A stretch of 64,000 bases of DNA from an uncultured Chloroflexia bacterium (GTDB lineage: Bacteria > Chloroflexota > Limnocylindria > Limnocylindrales > CSP1-4). The stretch lies in assembly GCA_963749705.1 (NCBI GenBank), contig CAVVNQ010000018.1, positions 32,001-96,000 of the forward strand, in the 5' to 3' direction. Positions 16,568 through 54,514 of this stretch are shown in pieces. A program made the translations under genes and the position numbers. Positions within the stretch are counted from its first letter, which is position 1; the number at the start of each line of letters is the position of its first letter. The notes under the pieces are model-generated. The model was given only the letters and a program-made list of their open reading frames with translations, was not told the origin of the DNA and did no database searches.

Positions 16568-16594
16568 TTAGCACTCTCAAGGTGCGAGTGCCAA
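16568..16594 (+). promoter_or_regulatory. CIRCE element (HrcA operator)
   Basis: TTAGCACTC-N9-GAGTGCCAA, one mismatch to the consensus TTAGCACTC-N9-GAGTGCTAA, directly upstream of hrcA. Confidence 0.95.
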
Positions 16595-16613: not shown

Positions 16614-17675
16614 ATGGCGCGTCGCGTGCGCTCCAGCGGCCCCCTTGACCTTCGCTCCCAGGCGATCCTTCGGGCCGTCATCGAGGAATACGTCACCACC
16701 GCTGCGCCGGTCGGCAGCCACGCTCTGGTCGAGCGCTTCCATCTGGGCGTGTCCAGCGCCACCGTCCGCAGCATCCTCGCCGAGCTCGAAGCGGCCGGCC
16801 TGCTGACCCATCCCCACACGTCGGCGGGTCGGGTCCCCACCGAGCAGGGCTACCGCTACTACGTCGAATCCATCGTGGACAACGTGCCCCTGCCGCCGGT
16901 CGAGCAGCTCATGATCCGGCACCAGTTCGGGCAGGTGGAGTTTGCGAGCGAGCACTGGTTCCGGCTGGCCGCGACCACGCTGGCATCGGTGACCCGCGCG
17001 GCGGGGCTCGCGACGCCCGCCAAGCCACGGTCCGCGCACCTTCGTCGGCTGGACCTGGTCTCGATCAGCGACCGGTTGGCGAGCCTGATCCTCGTGCTCC
17101 GCGAGGGCTCCCTCAAGCAGGTGCTCGTATCGCTCGACGAGGCGGTCGACCAGGAGGCGCTGTCCGCGGTCGCGAACCGCCTCAACGAGCTGCTGGACGA
17201 CCACACGGGCGCCGAGGCGGCGCGTGCCCTGGAGTCGCTCGACCCGGCCGATCCGGGGCTCGACCTTCACCGCCGCGTCGGCGAGCGCGTCGTGCGGGCG
17301 CTCGACGAGTTCGACGGCTCGGCGATCGAGGAGCTGTTCTCGGACGGGCTGCTCAACGTGATGGCCGCGCCCGAGTTTGCCCAGAGCGAGCGATTGCGCC
17401 GGGTGTTCGCGGCGCTCGAGAACCGGATGTACCTGGCCGAGCTCATCGACGATGTCGCCGGTGCGGGACGCGTGTGCGTGTTCATCGGCCACGAGAACTC
17501 GGCCGAGGACATGGCGGACGTCTCGCTGGTGCTTGCCCCGTACGGGCAGCCCGGACGTGCCGTCGGCGTCGTCGGGGTGCTGGGGCCGACCCGGATGGCG
17601 TATCCGCAGGCCATCGGCACCGTCCGCTTCATCTCCGGGCTCATGAACGAGCTCATCGACCACCTCTACGCCTGA
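16614..17675 (+). CDS. hrcA: Heat-inducible transcription repressor HrcA
   Basis: VSSATVR, HPHTSAGRVPT and GVLGPTRMAY; CIRCE upstream. Confidence 0.97.
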   Translation: MARRVRSSGPLDLRSQAILRAVIEEYVTTAAPVGSHALVERFHLGVSSATVRSILAELEAAGLLTHPHTSAGRVPTEQGYRYYVESIVDNVPLPPVEQLMIRHQFGQVEFASEHWFRLAATTLASVTRAAGLATPAKPRSAHLRRLDLVSISDRLASLILVLREGSLKQVLVSLDEAVDQEALSAVANRLNELLDDHTGAEAARALESLDPADPGLDLHRRVGERVVRALDEFDGSAIEELFSDGLLNVMAAPEFAQSERLRRVFAALENRMYLAELIDDVAGAGRVCVFIGHENSAEDMADVSLVLAPYGQPGRAVGVVGVLGPTRMAYPQAIGTVRFISGLMNELIDHLYA

Positions 17676-20352: not shown

Positions 20353-20386
20353 CGGCTCGCCGACGCGCGTCGGCGAGCCGTTTCTC
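20353..20386 (+). terminator. Putative intrinsic terminator after dnaK
   Basis: Perfect 28-bp palindrome CGGCTCGCCGACGCGCGTCGGCGAGCCG followed by TTTCTC. Confidence 0.75.
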
Positions 20387-20466
20387 GTGGCGCCGCTGCC
20401 GTGCGCGCCGTTTCTCGTGCGCCGCAGCTCGGCGCGCGACAGCTCGGCGCGCGAGGCCGCGAGGCC
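20377..20466. repeat. Cluster of short direct duplications
   Basis: gccgtttctcgtg x2 (20377, 20407); cagctcggcgcgcga tandem x2 (20425-20454); gcgaggcc x2 (20451-20466). Confidence 0.8.
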
Positions 20467-20469
20467 GCC

Positions 20470-20638
20470 CCGATTTCTGTCATTCAGTACTCACGCGCCT
20501 GTTCGGCGCCGCCGCTGGACGCGGTAGGCCCTGAGCGGGGTCAACCAGCCACGACGCGGCTAGATGTCCCCGATTCGGTGTCGCGAGCGGCTCGTACGGT
20601 GCCTTGCAGCCGAGTGGGTACTCGGTGACACAAACAGG
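20470..20638. repeat. Three-box inverted-repeat element, copy A (overlaps the 3' end of the HTH-nuclease gene)
   Basis: 28-bp imperfect terminal inverted repeats at 20470-20497 and 20611-20638, plus an internal direct box at about 20540-20558. Homologous to 50016-50173. Confidence 0.8.
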
Positions 20639-21279
20639 ATGCCGGCCACGGCGCGATCCGGCGCGGCGCACCAACGCCGCATCTCGACGGTTCGGCCGGG
20701 AAGCGCCGCAGAGAAGGTATCGGCGTGCCGTTCGATGCGCCTGCGCGAGGTCTTGTCGCCCGGCACGACCAGCCAGCGCGAGATCGAATGAGCGGGCCAG
20801 CCTCGCTCGCGCGCCACGCTTTTTGCCAGCCGGGTCTTGCGATCGATCCCTGCCAGCGTTGCCTGTACGTCGGGGACGGTGCTCTTGACCTCGACCACGA
20901 GCAACGCACCGGTCTGCCGGTGCGTGGCGAGAATGTCGATCGACCCTCGTTCGCCATAGACGTTGAAGGTCACCTCGGGTGCGACCTCCCAGCCACGGCG
21001 GCGAAGGATGCGCGAGACGCGCTCGACGATCTCCGCGTGGCCTGCGTCCAGTAGACGATCGACGTCCTCTCCGTGACTCATCACCCGAACGCTGACCCTC
21101 GCCCCGAGCGCCGCCAGCACCAGGGCCAGCGTCCGCACCGTCAGGCGGTCACCACGACCGCGCTCGATCCGCGAGATTGCCGTCTGCGAGATGCCCGCCG
21201 CTTCGGCCAGCCGTGCCTGGGTCCAGCCGCGCCGCCGACGCAGGGCGCGAAGCGACAGGCCGAAGCGCACCGGATCCAT
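20560..21279 (-). CDS. XRE-family HTH fused to a PD-(D/E)xK (DUF559/Vsr-like) nuclease-fold domain
   Basis: LRALRRRRGWTQARLAEAAGISQTAISRIERG (HTH_3-like), then PEVTF...GSIDILA...VVEVKS (E-D-ExK). Start is ATG 21279 or 21285. Confidence 0.8.
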   Translation of the reverse strand: MDPVRFGLSLRALRRRRGWTQARLAEAAGISQTAISRIERGRGDRLTVRTLALVLAALGARVSVRVMSHGEDVDRLLDAGHAEIVERVSRILRRRGWEVAPEVTFNVYGERGSIDILATHRQTGALLVVEVKSTVPDVQATLAGIDRKTRLAKSVARERGWPAHSISRWLVVPGDKTSRRRIERHADTFSAALPGRTVEMRRWCAAPDRAVAGILFVSPSTHSAARHRTSRSRHRIGDI

Positions 21280-21383: not shown

Positions 21384-21413
21384 TTGACAGTACCAAGTTT
21401 TTGTCGCTACGAT
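21384..21413 (+). promoter_or_regulatory. Sigma70-type promoter of the tetR-men operon
   Basis: TTGACA (21384-21389), 18 nt, TACGAT (21408-21413). Confidence 0.8.
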
Positions 21414-21423
21414 GGGACCGCAA

Positions 21424-21443
21424 CCGACCGACCGGTCGGTCGG
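21424..21443. promoter_or_regulatory. Putative TetR operator
   Basis: Perfect 20-bp palindrome CCGACCGACC|GGTCGGTCGG just downstream of the predicted TSS and upstream of tetR. Confidence 0.75.
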
Positions 21444-21474
21444 CCCAGATCGATGCAGCGGACATGTGGATCGG

Positions 21475-22137
21475 ATGACCAGGACGGATCCAACCGAGCA
21501 GAGCCGCAGCCGGCGGGAGCGGATCCTCGACGCAGCGTTCCACGCGTTCTCGACGCGCGGCTACCGAGACACCGCGATGGACGAGATCGCCGGCGCCTCG
21601 GAGACGTCGAAGGGCGGGGTGTACTTCCACTTCCCGACCAAGGAGGCGATCTTCCGCGAGCTGATGCAGACGACCGCCGACAAGCTGGTGGCGCGCGTCG
21701 AGCGGGCGGTCGAGCTCGAGACGGAGCCGGTTGCGCGAGCGGAGGCCGCACTGCGCGCGGTGCTCACCACGTTCTCCGGGCACCGAACGATGGCGCGGCT
21801 GCTGTTCCTCGACACGATCGGGGCCGGACGCGTGTTCCAGTCCGAGACGAACGCGCTGCACGACCGGTTCAGCCGCCTGATCCAGGGGTACCTCGATGAC
21901 GCGGTCGCGGCGGGCGCGATCCCGCCGATCGACACCCGCGTAACGAGCATCGCATGGTTCGGCGCGCTCAACGAGCTGGTCGCCCGGTGGCTCCTCGCGG
22001 ACCAGCCAAGCCCGCTCGAGGATGCGTACCCCGCGCTGCGGGCGGTCCTGCTGCGCAGCGTCGGTGTATCCGAGGAGCGGATCGGCCCGGCGCCGATGCC
22101 GACGGCAGGCCGCGAGTTCCCGGAGAAGGGTCGATGA
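21475..22137 (+). CDS. TetR/AcrR family transcriptional regulator
   Basis: RERILDAA..F..RGY..TAMDEIA...SKGGVYFHFPTKEAIF; stop overlaps the menF start (ATGA). Confidence 0.93.
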   Translation: MTRTDPTEQSRSRRERILDAAFHAFSTRGYRDTAMDEIAGASETSKGGVYFHFPTKEAIFRELMQTTADKLVARVERAVELETEPVARAEAALRAVLTTFSGHRTMARLLFLDTIGAGRVFQSETNALHDRFSRLIQGYLDDAVAAGAIPPIDTRVTSIAWFGALNELVARWLLADQPSPLEDAYPALRAVLLRSVGVSEERIGPAPMPTAGREFPEKGR

Positions 22138-48796: not shown

Positions 48797-49416
48797 CGGC
48801 CGGCTCGTCCGCGCCCGGCTCGCCCGCGCCCGGCGGCGACGGCGCCGCGCGCGCCGATGGTGCGTCGCCGGCCGCGAGCGGCGGTCCGCCGCTGTGGTTC
48901 GCCGCGCTCGGGATCGGCGGGCTGGTCCTGGCCGTCCTGCTGATCGCGGCCCAGACGCTCGGGATCGGCGCCGGCGGCGAGGCGGCGCAGGCCACGATGC
49001 CGCCGACCGGTGAGGCTGCGCAGAAGACCCACGACCTGCTCGTGAGCACCCTCGCCGCCGCCTCGTTCCAGGTCGTCGACCCGCAGACCCCGTACCGCCC
49101 CGGCGAGAGCCCGGAGCTCATCGACGTCCCGCGCCGGTTGCTCCAGGTCGTGCTCCCGTCGGACCCGACGGGCGGCTACATCGTGATCTACGAGCTGCCA
49201 TCCAACGGTGAGGCGGACCGCGTCGGGCGTGATCTCGCCGACTACCTCGCGGGCGGGCCGGGTGCGATCCAGTACCCCCGGGACGCGCAGTTCGTGATCC
49301 GGCGCGTCGGCGCCACGCTCGTGTTCTTCCCCTGGTCGCCGTCGGTGAGCCCGGATCCCGAGGTCGCTCGTCTCGCGGCGACGCTCGAGGCCGTGGGGGT
49401 TGCGGTCGGTCCTTGA
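48793..49416 (+). CDS. Hypothetical single-TM exported protein
   Basis: ATGA overlap with the HIT gene; one hydrophobic segment followed by a soluble domain. Confidence 0.7.
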   Translation: MTAGSSAPGSPAPGGDGAARADGASPAASGGPPLWFAALGIGGLVLAVLLIAAQTLGIGAGGEAAQATMPPTGEAAQKTHDLLVSTLAAASFQVVDPQTPYRPGESPELIDVPRRLLQVVLPSDPTGGYIVIYELPSNGEADRVGRDLADYLAGGPGAIQYPRDAQFVIRRVGATLVFFPWSPSVSPDPEVARLAATLEAVGVAVGP

Positions 49417-49438
49417 TCGGGAAGCTAGACTCCCGGCC

Positions 49439-49894
49439 ATGAGCGAGTCGTTCCGCGCCACCATCCAGCAGACGGGCAAGACCGCATGCGGGATCGAGGT
49501 CCCCGAGACCATCGTCCGTGCCCTCGGCGGCAGCCGACGCCCGGCCGTCGTGGTGACCCTCGACCGCTACACGTACCGGTCAACGGTGGCGCCGATGAGC
49601 GGCGGCTACTGGGTCGGGGTCAACGCCGACCATCGCGAGGCATCGGGTCTCAAGGCCGGCGACGAGGTCAAGGTGACGCTCGCCCTGGACACCGCGCCGC
49701 GCGAGCTCGAGGTGCCGCCCGAGCTGGCAGCAGCGCTGGACGCCGATCCCGCGGCGAAGGCGTTCTTCGACGGGCTCTCGTACAGCAACAAGCGCGTGTT
49801 CACGCTCAGCGTGGAAGGAACGAGCAACCCCGAGACGAAGGCTCGCCGCGTCGCCAAGGCGATCGCGCTGATGCGCGCGGGCCGCGTCCGGTAG
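49439..49894 (+). CDS. DUF1905 plus YdeI/OmdA-like domain protein
   Basis: GIEVP, TYRSTVAPM, GLKAGD, VPPELAAAL and ETKARRVAKA. Confidence 0.8.
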   Translation: MSESFRATIQQTGKTACGIEVPETIVRALGGSRRPAVVVTLDRYTYRSTVAPMSGGYWVGVNADHREASGLKAGDEVKVTLALDTAPRELEVPPELAAALDADPAAKAFFDGLSYSNKRVFTLSVEGTSNPETKARRVAKAIALMRAGRVR

Positions 49895-49895
49895 T

Positions 49896-50018
49896 CGCGC
49901 CCGGGCTGCTCGCGCCGACGTGCCCGGCGCGCCCGGGCTGCTCGCGCCCATCGCGCCCGTTACGCCGGTCGCCCCACCGCACCGGTCGCGCCCGGGCTTC
50001 CCGCGCCCATCGCGCCCG
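49896..50018. repeat. Three dispersed direct repeats
   Basis: cgcgcccgggct(g/t)c(t/c)cgcgcc at 49896, 49928 and 49987; the last two extend to 32 bp with 2 mismatches. Confidence 0.8.
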
Positions 50019-50173
50019 AAATGGTCAATCAGCACCCAGGCGCATGCTCGGGATGAACCCGGCGCAGGATCGGGGCCCGGGAGTCGCGTGGGTGGTATCT
50101 GTCCCAGGAACGGCGCGAGTCGGACCAGGTTCGGCGCCGACCAGCCGCGTGCGTGCTATCTGACGCAAATCGG
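50016..50173. repeat. Three-box inverted-repeat element, gene-less copy B (MITE/REP-like)
   Basis: Imperfect terminal inverted repeats at 50016-50042 and 50146-50173, internal box at about 50085-50103. The reverse complement aligns gaplessly with copy A. Confidence 0.8.
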
Positions 50174-50177
50174 CGAG

Positions 50178-50215
50178 GCCACGCCGGGGAAGCCACGCCG
50201 GGGAAGCCACGCCGG
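50178..50215. repeat. 14-bp tandem repeat x2.7
   Basis: gccacgccggggaa at 50178 and 50192, partial copy at 50206. Confidence 0.85.
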
Positions 50216-50227
50216 CCAGGGCGTGCG

Positions 50228-51922
50228 CTACGCGCGCGACCCCTGCATCGGCGCCTGCTCCTCGACCGCCGCCCAGGCACGAACCTGATCGCGCCTGACC
50301 TTGAACGTGTGCGTCCGTGGGAAGTCCGGCTCGGGCCACAGGCGCCAGCCCTCGATCCGCTGGTTGGGGCCGAGCGACCGGTTCGCCTCCTTGATCACCG
50401 CGGCGATCTCTGAACGCAGCGGGTCGTCGCCGCCGGGCGCCGCCGCCCCAGCCGTGCCTGCCCCGGCCGTCCCTGCCCCGGCCCCCGCGTCGGCCGGGAG
50501 CCGCCCAACCGGCGCCAGCACCACGACCTCGATCCGCCCGGGCTTCGTCTCGAGCGCCACGGAGTCGCGGACGCCGGCCACGCGCAGCGCGTTCTCGATG
50601 TCCTCGGGGAACACGTTGAACCCGTTGGGCAGGACGATGATGTCCTTCTTGCGGCCGTGGAGGTGAAGCCGGCCCTGCGCGTCGACCTGGCCCAGGTCGC
50701 CGGACCGGTACCAGCCGTCGGCGGTGAACGCCTCGGCCGTGGCCTCCGGGTTCTCCCAGTAGCCCTTGAACAGGTTCGGGCCGGCGAACTGGATCTCGCC
50801 GTCGTCGGCGATCCGCATCCTGACCGGCTCCGGCGGCCAGCCGACGCAGCCCGGCGGATGGTCGGCCATCGTCGTGCAGCAGCCAGCCGCCGTCTCGGTC
50901 GAGCCGTAGCCCTGGAGCACGATCACGCCCATGTCCTCCCACGCCTGCTGGAGGGCAGGCGGCAGGAACGCCCCGGCGCACGCGAACAGCCGCAGGCCGC
51001 CGCCGAACTGCCGGTGCACGCTGCCGAACAGGAGCCGGCGCGCCCACATCGGCAGCCGGCGCGCGATCCGCCGCAGGCGCTCGAACGACGCCGTCCGGCC
51101 CTGCTTCGCAACCTCGCGCTCGATCGCGCTCCAGAACAGGTCCAGCAGCTGGGGCACCAGCAGCATCGTCGTGACCCGGTGGTCGTGGAGCGCCTCGAAG
51201 ATGACCCGCGGGTTGCGGCTTCGCACGTACAGGATGTCGGCGCCGACATCGAGCGCGTAGTACAGCGACACCGCCTGCTCGAGCGAGTGGGACAACGGCA
51301 GCAGCGACACCAGCCGGTGCTCCATCGGCTTGATGATCCCGTGGAACGACCGGACGCCGGCCAGCACGTTGTCGTGGGCGAGCATCACGCCCTTGGGATT
51401 GCCGGTCGTGCCCGAGGTGAACACGAGCTCGAACACCTCGTCGGGACGCGGGCGAGGCCAGGCGGCGACCTGCGCCTCCCAGTCGGGCGGGAAGGTGTCA
51501 TCGGGCTCGAGCGACAGGTCGTCCACGATCGTGGTCGGGAACGCCTCGAGCCCCACCTCGGCCGGGTCGCCGGCGTCGCGACCGCTGCCCAGCGCGAGAT
51601 GCACCGCGCCCGACACCTCGACGATCCGCCGGATCGTGTCCGGGGCCATCCGGGCGTCGAGCGGGACGAAGATCAGGCGCGCCATCATCGCGCCGAAGTA
51701 GGCCGCCGGCAACGCCGGCGTCGACGGCGACCACGTCAGCAGCCGGTCACCCGGCTGGAGCCCGATGGCGCGCAGCCGCCATGCCGCGATCCGGCTCCGC
51801 CGCAGCAGCTCGCGGTACGTCCAGTGGAACGTCGAGCCGTCGTCGCGGCGAAGACCCAGCGCCGGACGGTCGGCGTACCGCGCCGCGCTGGTCTCGAGGA
51901 GATCGACCAGGGTCTCCATCAT
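50228..51922 (-). CDS. AMP-dependent (long-chain acyl-CoA) synthetase/ligase
   Basis: FTSGTTGNPKGV, QGYGSTE, WYRSGDLG, GRKKDII and PRTHTFKV. Confidence 0.9.
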   Translation of the reverse strand: MMETLVDLLETSAARYADRPALGLRRDDGSTFHWTYRELLRRSRIAAWRLRAIGLQPGDRLLTWSPSTPALPAAYFGAMMARLIFVPLDARMAPDTIRRIVEVSGAVHLALGSGRDAGDPAEVGLEAFPTTIVDDLSLEPDDTFPPDWEAQVAAWPRPRPDEVFELVFTSGTTGNPKGVMLAHDNVLAGVRSFHGIIKPMEHRLVSLLPLSHSLEQAVSLYYALDVGADILYVRSRNPRVIFEALHDHRVTTMLLVPQLLDLFWSAIEREVAKQGRTASFERLRRIARRLPMWARRLLFGSVHRQFGGGLRLFACAGAFLPPALQQAWEDMGVIVLQGYGSTETAAGCCTTMADHPPGCVGWPPEPVRMRIADDGEIQFAGPNLFKGYWENPEATAEAFTADGWYRSGDLGQVDAQGRLHLHGRKKDIIVLPNGFNVFPEDIENALRVAGVRDSVALETKPGRIEVVVLAPVGRLPADAGAGAGTAGAGTAGAAAPGGDDPLRSEIAAVIKEANRSLGPNQRIEGWRLWPEPDFPRTHTFKVRRDQVRAWAAVEEQAPMQGSRA

Positions 51923-54067: not shown

Positions 54068-54514
54068 TCAGACTCGTGCCAGCCAGCGATCGAACTCCGT
54101 CCTCGTCCGTCTGCCCACCTGGACCGCTGCGCCACGCTTGAAGGACGAGCTCCCGAAGATGTGCGTGTACCCGCCAAGGTCCGTCGGGAGATAGAAGTCG
54201 CCGTACTTGATCATCGCCACCCGAGTCGGGCCGAAGTGGCCGTAGAAGAAGCCGAACTCGAACAGCACGTTCAGGTTCGGCACCTGCACGGTGTTCCCGC
54301 GGATCACGGTCTCGGACTCGGGCGACATCACGAGGACGGCGGCGTCGACCTGCTCGCGGATCGCGTCGAGGTTCTGGAGCAGGGTCGTGCCGGGAACAAA
54401 GGCGTCCCACCATGGCAGGAACTCGAGCGTGGCGCCTGAGAACTTCCTGACGATGGCCTTTGCCTGCGATCGCGCCGCGCCGGACGATCCGATGAAGACG
54501 CGAGTGCGCGGCAC
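54068..54514 (-). CDS. Stand-alone TIR-domain protein (CAP12/Pycsar-type TIR, PF10137-like)
   Basis: GTG 54514 after GGGAGG; 148 aa with VFIGSS, DAAVLVMSP, NVLFEFGFFYG.FG..R and LPTDLGG. Confidence 0.82.
   Translation of the reverse strand: MPRTRVFIGSSGAARSQAKAIVRKFSGATLEFLPWWDAFVPGTTLLQNLDAIREQVDAAVLVMSPESETVIRGNTVQVPNLNVLFEFGFFYGHFGPTRVAMIKYGDFYLPTDLGGYTHIFGSSSFKRGAAVQVGRRTRTEFDRWLARV

Follow-up and report, generated by a model that had tools for sequence, protein, structure and literature searches.

An HTH-nuclease gene and a three-box DNA element that contains its 3′ end form a joint unit in this genome (G000) of an uncultured Chloroflexota bacterium, and the boxes are best explained as recognition sites of the same HTH-nuclease, with the element copies found elsewhere in the genome as its selected target sites. 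We would give this explanation as a whole a probability of about 50%. At the level of sequence, the analysis establishes the architecture, its conservation and the co-variation of gene and box, both among orthologues and in three paralogous systems. Binding, cleavage, the purpose of a cut and the origin of new copies are what we infer from it.

The gene and its three-box element

The gene, its domains and the gene-linked element copy (el1) have the following coordinates in the window, by which we mean the whole stretch of 64,000 nt that was analysed.

20560–21279, minus strand: HTH-nuclease gene (open reading frame and translation; 239-aa product)
21103–21252, minus strand: XRE/Cro-C1 helix-turn-helix, residues 10–59 (Pfam HTH_3)
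20821–21018, minus strand: PD-(D/E)xK-like nuclease core, residues 88–153, with E102, D115, E130 and K132
20470–20638, no strand: el1, gene-linked copy of the three-box inverted-repeat element (sequence; best nhmmer and covariance-model match)
20470–20497, plus strand: el1 left outer box, non-coding, core at 20479–20497 (sequence)
20540–20558, plus strand: el1 middle box, GTCAaccAGCCAcGAcgCG, 61 nt after the left core at 20479
20611–20638, minus strand: el1 right outer box; the gene strand encodes L215–S223 (LFVSPSTHS), from 20611–20637

The initial annotation described 28-bp imperfect terminal inverted repeats, and both arms were confirmed at 20470–20497 and 20611–20638. These outer boxes are identical at 20 of 28 positions, including the core GTCA-N3-AGTAC-N-CA-N2-CG, and with the middle box at 61 nt they make el1 a roughly two-fold symmetric element of ~169 bp. 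The third box, likewise claimed to lie 61 nt past the left one, was found at 20540–20558 and is kept in all 11 aligned copies, each with the three boxes at fixed spacing. The final 24 codons and the stop of the gene fall within el1: as annotated, the right arm encodes LFVSPSTHS and the stop codon (20560–20562) lies inside the element, where it adjoins the middle box. The TAG stop occupies the same alignment column at 6 of 10 distinct orthologous loci. The middle box forms a partial palindrome with 20560–20572 and, because it is the left half of such a partial central palindrome in some copies, el1 among them, the entire element has dyad symmetry. Comparison of copies with their own reverse complements gave z of 3.8–5.6 in 6 of 8 cases; the central palindrome is clear in el1 and weak overall, with z ≥1.9 over the central 64 nt in only 3 of 8 copies. 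Six sequencing runs were found and four of them compared with this region; all are available as contigs, and the stretch 20359–20613 is covered by none.

The 239-aa protein comprises an N-terminal XRE-type HTH, a PD-(D/E)xK-like domain and a basic C-terminal tail. Its HTH matched Pfam HTH_3 with an E-value of 3.7e-13 (49.7 bits against a cut-off of 23), and the same profile was matched by all 20 HTH-nuclease family members compared. The matches of this region in a PDB profile search were all HTH proteins, including C.AhdI and HipB; the PADLOC 'control protein' model matched at E 3.6e-5, and the NCBIfam HipB-type model below threshold. E102, D115, E130 and K132 are unchanged in 20 of 20 family sequences, in agreement with the PD-(D/E)xK signature first read from the translation, and an AGIxF...RHR motif is kept at the C-terminal end across the family alignment. 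Sub-threshold Pfam matches in the nuclease domain of the 20 members were to MmcB-like (16), Mrr_cat (8), MTES_1575 (7), UPF0102 (4) and Hjc (3) profiles, and the PDB 'restriction endonuclease' 9wuf_A aligned with the D..ExK stretch at E 0.037. The profile comparison that had been suggested for the fold gave a 90.8% probability against UPF0102/YraN in hhalign (E 1.2e-6, 63 columns), with all Pfam matches sub-threshold. From these sequence comparisons the domain is a candidate for the α-β-β-β-α-β core fold of the PD-(D/E)xK superfamily. These results support the prediction of a PD-(D/E)xK-like C-terminal domain that is homologous to UPF0102 by hhalign; since it scores below every Pfam gathering score, it is not a member of the UPF0102/YraN or Hjc families. 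Pfam, NCBIfam, PADLOC and PHROGs returned HTH names and weak nuclease matches for the protein and nothing else, and no HUH/Y1 transposase model of Pfam or NCBIfam matched it.

The gene lies between dnaK, to which it is tail-to-tail, and a TetR-family gene. dnaK adjoins it in 45 of 110 loci, and the only neighbours that recur are this convergent dnaK and an ORF found upstream in 20 loci. No modification, inhibitor, restriction, methylase, toxin or recombinase gene adjoins it, and plasmid and phage searches returned no homologue. The gene is single-copy and chromosomally stable, in synteny with dnaK and the TetR-family gene, and is not an autonomous mobile gene. We found at least 1,818 homologues of similar length and at least 400 genomic loci, and homologues with E ≤1e-30 form 738 clusters at 50% identity. 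The nuclease domain was present in 25 of 32 sampled genomes of the class and in none of 268 drawn from the phylum's other families; the gene family is restricted to a single little-studied class of Chloroflexota, which record titles call Candidatus Limnocylindrales. Literature searches, mainly of titles and abstracts, returned no description of such a system.

Pairing of genes and boxes across the family

Across homologous loci, the boxes change together with the genes. An inverted copy of the gene's own 45-nt box was found within 320 nt downstream (z ≥3) in 59 of 100 homologous loci, and in 51 loci at most 1 of 200 shuffles reached the score. Inverted copies scored 24.7 on average downstream, compared with 18.3 upstream. 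In a cross-locus control with 90 distinct loci, the gene's own downstream region was the single best in 17 and within the top 5% in 40. The signal extended to other genera of the class, where at most 4 of 200 shuffles reached the score in 7 of 10 loci. That gene and element form one unit, as had been proposed, is supported by a junction kept in orthologues and, with other box sequences, in these 59 loci.

Two box types illustrate the pairing. G000 has an AGT gene box, nine AGY boxes and no GCY box; genome G005 has a GCT gene box, and its five exact matches are all GCY. All 10 AGY-group genes carry S/T-Q in the recognition helix, and 3 of the 4 GCY-type genes carry S-R there; phylogenetic confounding of the two groups makes this co-change of helix and box weak evidence. 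Two paralogues in G000 have box families of their own with gene-less inverted-repeat copies (17 versus 0 and 8 versus 0 in the control). That each related gene has a matching repeat family points to an undescribed protein–repeat partnership, and the predicted cognate recognition of the boxes by the HTH-nuclease is well supported.

Some loci carry longer or additional repeats. At L086 the gene is flanked by 351-bp inverted repeats of 95% identity, the sole case among 100 loci with repeats on both sides, and at L117 the 3′ end of the gene is duplicated in tandem over 197 nt. L116 contains three inverted gene-box copies of 23–35 nt, 96–100% identical and with a period of 71 nt, and in G005 a palindrome of ~430 nt downstream of the gene repeats the gene's last ~30 nt in inverted orientation.

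Since one arm is coding and the other lies inverted just downstream, with an equivalent frame that is open and arginine-rich, we considered a shufflon-like switch in which the coding box would recombine with downstream inverted copies, by inversion or gene conversion, and so swap in alternative basic C-terminal tails. The near-identical inverted gene-box copies of L116 would suit such a switch, as would the element interior that is opposite in orientation between two alleles, C11 and C15. Free tail swapping is hard to reconcile with the RHR motif that follows the box and hardly varies across the family, and a matching second-arm stop occurs in only 3 of 11 aligned copies. With no recombinase gene adjacent and the unlinked gene-less copies left unexplained, we regard a tail switch as highly improbable.

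Dispersed copies and their conservation

The annotation had also placed a gene-less homologue of the element 30 kb away. This copy (el2) was found with the same layout.

50015–50173, no strand: el2, gene-less copy (nhmmer; core to core 50024–50164)
50024–50042, plus strand: el2 outer box core (exact pattern match)
50085–50103 (contig 82085–82103), minus strand: el2 middle box (two mismatches to the pattern; 61 nt from the outer core at 50164)
50146–50164, minus strand: el2 second outer box core (exact pattern match)

el2 sits between convergent genes for a YdeI/DUF1905-type protein (49400–49894, plus strand) and an AMP-binding enzyme (50228–51922, minus strand). Genome-wide, an nhmmer profile identified nine element loci in G000, including the gene-linked copy, with the gene-less ones at unlinked sites. 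Short GC-rich tandem duplications flank both el1 and el2.

We scanned the window with the box pattern and obtained four exact matches and one with a single mismatch against 0.15 expected, with 0 of 100 shuffles reaching five, a chance test that is circular because the pattern was derived from those four arms. The scan of the whole genome, which the initial annotation had put forward as a check, yielded nine exact matches, five of them beyond the four source arms, compared with 0 and 0 for reversed patterns, and 26 matches at up to one mismatch compared with 2 in the control. The one-mismatch match at 54433–54451 is isolated and was taken as chance.

Most copies are placed between convergent genes. 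The flanking genes are mixed in function, encoding a monooxygenase, an oligopeptidase, a UvrD-type helicase, an SDR, a DHDPS and the AMP-binding enzyme, and one copy follows an HtrA-like protease gene. Among eight copies, identity was 59% in box columns and 31%, the random level, in the rest of the element; conserved box columns and a fixed three-box spacing are the pattern expected of selected binding sites. Coding constraint on the gene-less arms, suggested by variable positions that resemble third codon positions, was dropped because the G of GTCA, a third position, is invariant while positions 1 and 2 of that codon vary. The peptide likeness of these arms follows from their DNA likeness.

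When el1 was compared with its orthologue in the nearest relative, G020, its non-coding half (20470–20559) was identical at 89 of 90 positions, while third codon positions of the gene were identical at 213 of 239 (89% at synonymous sites) and neighbouring intergenic DNA at 84 of 91, with 52 gap columns. This comparison demonstrates purifying selection on the non-coding half. G020 also has an orthologous el2 at the same site, with 86 of 103 box columns identical. For another copy, C4a, the corresponding figure is 58 of 103, and some orthologous copies are as diverged as unrelated ones, so selection acts unevenly. Box positions and spacing are kept across orthologues of 60–93% protein identity.

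Strong element families (best E ≤1e-15) were detected in 8 of 61 genomes of the genus, and an orthologue of at least 70% identity is present in 6 of these 8. The element overlaps the 3′ end of the ≥70% orthologue in G020, G059, G066, G067 and G068, and a 3′ overlap is also found in G053 and G001 with weaker element matches. Two incomplete genomes have strong AGY-type elements and no cognate gene was found in them: in G009 (73% complete) the best gene match has 43% identity, and in G050 (60% complete) the allele at the dnaK locus is of GCY type. G066 has about nine copies, yet its gene is split over two frames.

These conservation data bear on the reading that the elements are functionless by-products, left near the gene's 3′ end by gene conversion and by duplications of palindromic or foldback type, for which the G005 palindrome, the repeats and duplications of L086, L117 and L116, and the GC-rich short tandem duplications beside el1 and el2 could be cited. 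By-products would not be expected to retain 89 of 90 non-coding positions against 89% at synonymous sites, nor the same box positions and spacing in 11 aligned copies and across 60–93% orthologues, nor would they explain gene-less copies at unlinked loci. We therefore consider this origin quite unlikely.

A second possibility is that the elements are non-autonomous mobile DNA, of MITE or REPIN type, cut out or copied by the HTH-nuclease with the gene-linked copy as master. Terminal inverted repeats, intergenic placement and the cognate pairing of gene and repeat are all compatible with mobility, and copy content varies among relatives: C21a is present in G000 and G050 and missing from G020, G066 and G053, and C8a is present in G000, G050 and G066 and missing from G053. 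The gene-linked copy belongs to the closest pair of copies in G059 and in G067 (0.79 and 0.80), the L086 gene lies between its 351-bp repeats of 95% identity, and C11 and C15, although alleles of one locus with flanks 90–97% identical, hold very different copies. Against this, pairwise identity among 47 copies in eight genomes reached a maximum of only 0.70–0.80 with a median of about 0.66, and element interiors are at the random level of 31%. Flanking direct repeats of 3–6 nt were within the null from 300 random sites, element ends being roughly defined. The G000 copies missing from G020 occur in more distant genomes and so look like losses rather than new insertions. The gene itself is syntenic with dnaK in 45 of 110 loci, and homologues were absent from the plasmids and phages searched. 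The autonomous/non-autonomous pair driven by a restriction-like nuclease that had been envisaged at the outset is thus not upheld, with copies at no more than 0.80 identity, no target-site duplication, apparent losses instead of gains and a stable dnaK-linked gene; we rate mobility of this kind as doubtful.

Placement between convergent genes, which applies to the majority of copies, would also be expected if the elements acted as RNA, namely as 3′-UTR hairpins that terminate or stabilise convergent transcripts, the nuclease mRNA included. The predicted fold of el1 (−79.2 kcal/mol, z −3.75, 0 of 200 shuffles better) is in line with such a role, whereas el2 folds no better than its shuffles (z +0.25, 119 of 200). 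The consensus fold is weak at −7.2 kcal/mol, no more than 4 of 16 pairs show compensatory change, co-variation is absent from the variable positions of the arms, and the arms are only about 70% complementary. A search for terminator-like sites found none, and Rfam gave 0 matches at gathering score in the whole 64,000-nt window. An RNA function is very unlikely on this evidence.

Returning to recognition by the HTH-nuclease, el1 would be the gene-linked copy of a lineage-specific family of roughly two-fold symmetric elements of ~150–170 bp, built from two inverted outer boxes of ~28 bp and a middle box at a fixed 61 nt. The boxes are most likely read by the HTH of the overlapping gene's own protein; several protomers may bridge them, and the nuclease domain would act on or beside the bound element. 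The overlap of gene and site would hold both together, making cis loading or autoregulation possible and ensuring co-inheritance. The eight further copies in G000 would then be extra target sites, selected at their box positions and turning over slowly, rather than a recently transposing family. Several observations count against this explanation. They include the strong elements of G009 and G050 with no cognate gene found, the split gene of G066 and the uneven selection on orthologous copies. A position mostly between convergent genes is not the usual one for operators, and a chromosomal nuclease with about nine sites per lineage must be restrained, whereas no restraining gene adjoins this one.

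The same parts can be arranged as repeat propagation, in which an HTH-guided PD-(D/E)xK nuclease would cut palindromic elements that hold the 3′ end of its own gene, and hairpin or foldback repair or break-induced copying would create, homogenise and occasionally disperse them. We regard this as unlikely. If true, it would be the first repeat–enzyme partnership with a restriction-type nuclease instead of an HUH or DDE transposase, and one in which the enzyme's C-terminal tail and stop codon are written in the repeat.

Relation to known systems

By analogy, the closest counterpart of the gene–element pair is REPIN–RAYT, but with another class of enzyme. REPIN–RAYT systems combine inverted doublets of REP sequences with a spacer and a REP-associated tyrosine transposase (PMC3116915, PMC3337134, 10.1101/2022.05.22.493013, 10.1101/119735). 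In both systems the enzyme gene is single-copy, passes on vertically and is flanked by a cognate repeat (here only 3′ of the gene), the repeats are spaced inverted doublets in extragenic positions, and specific groups coexist, with three REP groups and their specific RAYTs in one system and three paralogue–box families in the other. They differ in that RAYT is an HUH/Y1 tyrosine transposase resembling the TnpA of IS200/IS605, whereas the enzyme described here is HTH plus PD-(D/E)xK-like; in that REPs are short hairpin palindromes present in tens to hundreds of copies that, as REPINs, form a cloud around a master sequence, whereas the present boxes are asymmetric, about 28 bp long and found in 6–10 highly diverged copies per family; and in that the present repeat overlaps the coding 3′ end and supplies the stop. 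Hairpin folding is significant for el1 only, and the boxes generally do not have the form of hairpin palindromes. Of the REP/RAYT parallel drawn in the initial annotation, cognate pairing stood, with three paralogue–box families in one genome; mobile repeats driven by the enzyme were not supported.

Other systems resemble single aspects of the pair. IS-derived MITEs, Correia-type elements among them, measure 150–170 bp, have terminal inverted repeats of ~28 bp and often lie between convergent genes. The present elements match them in size, terminal repeats and intergenic placement, but lack target-site duplications and near-identical copies, lack a parent IS whose matching ends bracket a transposase (inverted repeats on either side of the gene occur at 1 of 100 loci, and the inverted partner box lies downstream of the gene), carry a conserved internal middle box and have a partner gene that is not a DDE transposase. 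In ParB/Spo0J–parS, Tus–Ter and RTP–Ter the DNA-binding protein, which has no nuclease domain, recognises one site in or beside the gene that encodes it and about ten others on the chromosome. The tie of a site to its own gene and the few dispersed, individually conserved sites are common to both. Their sites are single short palindromes or asymmetric 16–23-bp sequences that cluster regionally, while here three-box modules of 150 bp are spread (for example over a 2.7-Mb contig of G059) and several paralogous systems coexist per genome. Restriction–modification controller (C) proteins and the XRE-type antitoxins HipB and HigA belong to the same HTH family; unlike them and their C-boxes, the present sites lie at a 3′ end instead of a promoter, the HTH is fused to a nuclease domain, and no restriction, methylase or toxin gene is adjacent. 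UPF0102/YraN and Hjc-type nucleases share the profile–profile match over the catalytic core and differ from the present protein in its N-terminal HTH and conserved basic tail.

If the protein recognises the boxes, the system would offer a compact case of co-diversified protein specificity and DNA sites, with three cognate pairs in one genome and hundreds of gene lineages, each pair having one site inside the coding sequence of its protein. It touches on the question of whether dispersed bacterial repeats last because they are selected target sites or because they replicate themselves, and would add a restriction-type nuclease to the short list of repeat-paired enzymes. A possible use of the lineage-specific pairs of ~28-bp box and HTH-nuclease is as orthogonal modules for sequence-specific DNA targeting.

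The position beside the hrcA–grpE–dnaK operon, finally, raises the question of whether the protein is a transcription factor and the boxes are CIRCE-related operators of a heat-shock-type regulon. The gene is tail-to-tail with dnaK, one copy follows the HtrA-like protease gene, and the box core resembles one CIRCE half-site. This is the least likely of the readings considered, given that the genes flanking the copies are functionally mixed, the nuclease catalytic residues are conserved, and the boxes lie ~130 nt apart at gene ends rather than promoters. In a CIRCE/HrcA operator, which lies at a promoter, 9 nt separate two inverted half-sites of 9 nt each, and the arms of the present element share with it only the half-site-like core. 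A true CIRCE with the standard 9-nt spacer is located at 16568–16594, before hrcA.

A three-box element at the 3′ end of an HTH-nuclease gene

The gene-linked element (el1, 20470-20638) and its gene-less counterpart (el2, 50015-50173) comprise the following features.

20470-20497: el1 left outer box, core GTCA-N3-AGTAC-N-CA-N2-CG
20540-20558: el1 third (middle) box, starting 61 nt after the left core
20611-20638, minus strand: el1 right outer box, encoding L215-S223 of the gene
20560-21279, minus strand: HTH-nuclease ORF, 239 aa, with its stop at 20560-20562
50024 and 50164: gene-less core pair of el2, between two convergent genes

The el1 arms agree at 20/28 positions including the core, by our count. 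Inverted arms, a third box at 61 nt, a gene stop inside the element and a gene-less second copy, as described in the initial annotation, were all seen in the sequence. Within the window, the box pattern matched five times against 0.15 expected, a statistic that is circular because the pattern was derived from these same four arms; the independent test is the rest of G000, the genome holding the window. The genome scan that the annotation had suggested gave 9 exact matches in G000, compared with 0 and 0 for reversed patterns, and 26 versus 2 when up to one mismatch was allowed. A lone one-mismatch match at 54433-54451, with no partner box near, was regarded as chance.

An nhmmer profile located nine element loci in G000, including el1 and el2, three of which were absent from the profile-building set; element ends are fixed only to within a few bases. 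In 11/11 aligned copies, 8 of them from G000 and 3 from G020 (the nearest relative of G000), the two outer inverted boxes and the middle box were kept. Within the set of 8 from G000, identity was 59% in box columns and 31% in the remaining columns, the latter being about the random level for this base composition. Whole elements were dyad-symmetric (z 3.8-5.6 in 6/8 copies), with a central palindrome evident in el1 and weak in most other copies. Action as an RNA hairpin is disfavoured, as el1 alone outscores shuffled sequence in folding and there is no co-variation at the variable positions of the arms.

Most copies are flanked by convergent ORFs, and the genes beside them are functionally unrelated. 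The location of the boxes at gene ends argues against heat-shock operators, a reading suggested by the resemblance of the box core to a CIRCE half-site. One copy (contig C15) has a full 9-nt CIRCE half-site in one arm. A true CIRCE, an inverted repeat with one mismatch to the consensus, lies elsewhere (16568-16594), just ahead of hrcA (16614-17675), the first gene of hrcA-grpE-dnaK. Both elements are bordered by tandem duplications that are short and GC-rich (units of ~13-30 nt, 2-3 copies), at 20370-20469, 49890-50020 and 50170-50215. Similar ones follow the dnaK terminator in relatives, even at an empty site (L046), and may be a general intergenic feature of the genus.

Cognate gene-box families

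The N-terminus of the protein is an XRE-type HTH (HTH_3, E 3.7e-13), and residues 70-239 lie outside any curated family. By sequence comparison the middle domain is PD-(D/E)xK-like, in line with the initial annotation: E102, D115, E130 and K132 were invariant in 20/20 family sequences, and hhalign against UPF0102 proteins from the same genus gave 90.8% probability (E 1.2e-6, 63 columns). Sub-threshold Pfam matches among the 20 members were to MmcB-like (16), Mrr_cat (8), MTES_1575 (7), UPF0102 (4) and Hjc (3), and a domain profile searched against PDB reached "restriction endonuclease" at E 0.037 across the D...ExK stretch. The C-terminus is conserved as AG-I-x-F, about 9 variable residues and R-H-R; the coding stretch within the element therefore belongs to the family proper and is not insertion debris. 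Family members with E of 1e-30 or lower form 738 clusters at 50% identity. Of 301 Chloroflexota genomes sampled, G000 included, 26 had the nuclease domain; they belong to two families of a single class (14/15 and 11/15), and the domain was found in 0/268 genomes from other families of the phylum. It had no homologue in the plasmid and phage collections.

Gene and element form one unit, as had been claimed: the junction was the same in orthologues at 60-93% identity, where conserved downstream islands correspond to the coding box, a stop-carrying middle box and the final inverted box, and the TAG stop occupied the same alignment column in 6/10 distinct orthologous loci. We generalised this comparison to 100 homologous loci (90 distinct by box sequence), taking 45 nt from codon 214 and seeking its reverse complement within 320 nt downstream. 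The inverted copy scored z of 3 or more in 59 of the 100 loci, and at most 1/200 shuffles reached the score in 51; the mean score was 24.7 downstream versus 18.3 in the upstream control. When regions were exchanged between loci, a locus's own downstream region was the single best match in 17/90 cases (~1 by chance) and in the top 5% in 40/90 (~4.5 by chance). Among 10 loci from other genera and from the class's second family, 7 had a score that no more than 4/200 shuffles attained. Because box sequences are lineage-specific, the gene box and the downstream boxes change together.

With box types named by core letters, the gene box in G000 is AGT and the genome holds 9 AGY and 0 GCY boxes; in the related genome G005 the gene box is GCT and 5/5 exact matches are GCY, gene-less inverted pairs among them. 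Residue 2 of the HTH recognition helix is Q in 10/10 AGY-group genes and R in 3/4 GCY-type genes, an agreement that is suggestive and confounded by phylogeny. Two G000 paralogues, 41-43% identical to the window's gene, share its design with unrelated boxes. One box type gave 17 matches versus 0 for the reversed control, with gene-less inverted pairs 142 nt apart; the core of the other gave 8 versus 0, among them a gene-less array with three copies in direct and one in inverted orientation. Three apparently cognate gene-box families in one genome provide the strongest argument for a functional link.

A covariance model detected the AGY-type family in 25/61 genus genomes, which are related and hence not independent samples. 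Strong families (best E of 1e-15 or lower) occurred in 8 genomes, 6/8 with an orthologue at 70% identity or more; the other two were G009 (73% complete) and G050 (60% complete), all genomes being metagenome-assembled and incomplete (G000, 88%). In G066, which has about 9 element copies, the orthologue (L156/L162, G066:C79:34033-34747) is split over two frames into two pieces at 80-89% identity, through either a frameshift or an assembly error. G050 carries at the corresponding position an HTH-nuclease gene (L155, G050:C4:234-926) only 60% identical to the window's, with a GCY-type box, beside a TetR-family gene 92-94% identical to that of G000; the locus thus appears fixed and its allele replaced.

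Selection and proposed recognition

Comparison of G000 with G020 gave evidence of selection on the non-coding half of el1 (20470-20559), which was identical at 89/90 positions with no gaps; the corresponding counts were 213/239 for third codon positions of the gene, 602/641 for all of the gene lying outside the element, 84/91 (52 gap columns) for dnaK-side intergenic DNA, and 80/99 (33 gap columns) for intergenic DNA upstream of the gene. One gene-less copy was conserved like the el1 half (164/166), one moderately (130/157), and one was at the level of unrelated copies (87/167). A functionless duplication is contradicted by the box conservation in copies and by the 89/90 identity, although these loci do contain large palindromes and tandem duplications.

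The sequence comparisons establish the architecture, how it is conserved, the gene-box co-variation and the selection. We consider it about an even chance (roughly 0.5) that the boxes are recognition sites of the protein encoded beside them, and we infer binding, cleavage and their purpose as follows. The HTH would read the box, which is long and asymmetric; several protomers may bridge boxes, as hinted at by the dyad symmetry and by spacings fixed at 61 and ~71 nt, and conservation of the catalytic site suggests nicking or cutting of the element once bound. A site inside the gene's own 3′ end would tie enzyme to site and permit control in cis, while the other sites would be kept individually with slow turnover.

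ParB-parS and Tus-Ter likewise combine a site in or beside their own gene with about ten further chromosomal sites; unlike them, the present system has a nuclease domain and a three-box module. In logic it also resembles REPIN-RAYT, where enzymes pair specifically with their repeat groups, the repeats form inverted doublets and the enzyme is single-copy and inherited vertically (PMC3116915). The G000 system falls outside REPIN-RAYT in enzyme class, repeat type and population structure. Literature searches found no description of an HTH-nuclease gene ending in cognate three-box repeats.

Possible mobility, and rearrangements at the locus

We regard active mobilisation by the nuclease, the autonomous/non-autonomous pair first proposed, as unlikely. 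The best within-genome pairs were only 0.70-0.80 identical (median ~0.66; 47 copies, 8 genomes), and target-site duplication was not above null. Sites that are otherwise conserved differ in whether they hold an element copy, as mobilisation would predict, but copies in G000 and not in G020 also occur in more distant genomes and therefore look like losses. Two further observations favour movement: in L086 the gene is bracketed by inverted repeats of 351 bp (95% identical), and at one locus two alleles whose flanks are 90-97% identical hold very different copies; against it, the gene is a stable neighbour of dnaK (45/110 loci, not dereplicated) and of a TetR-family gene.

Large rearrangements in relatives (L270, L086, L117 and L116) centre on the gene's 3′ end. 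L270 (G005:C7:8250-8800) has a palindrome of ~430 nt in which the last ~30 nt of the gene recur as a second, inverted copy, L117 a 197-nt tandem duplication of the gene's 3′ end, and L116 three inverted gene-box copies (23-35 nt, 96-100% identical) with a 71-nt period. A bolder and less probable reading is that a restriction-type nuclease creates palindromes out of its own 3′ end and disperses them. Switching of the C-terminal tail by inversion is opposed by the lack of an adjacent recombinase, and it leaves the gene-less copies unexplained.

The dnaK-TetR spacer is a variable spot. It is empty in some genomes; in others (L040 and L060, in G046 and G024) the place of the HTH-nuclease gene is taken by a small conserved ORF of ~80 aa and, in one case, by a membrane-protein-like ORF. 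A promoter-like TTGACA-18-TACGAT at 21384-21413, ahead of the TetR-family gene (21412-22137), is conserved in relatives, also at sites without the HTH-nuclease gene. Within G000, contig stretches C11:70001-88000 and C15:459246-476353 run collinear for at least 18 kb, with 90-97% identity; either a large segment is duplicated or the assembly combines two strains. The element copies that the two stretches carry at a shared intergenic site are very different, and flank identity is 97% on one side of the element and 91% on the other.
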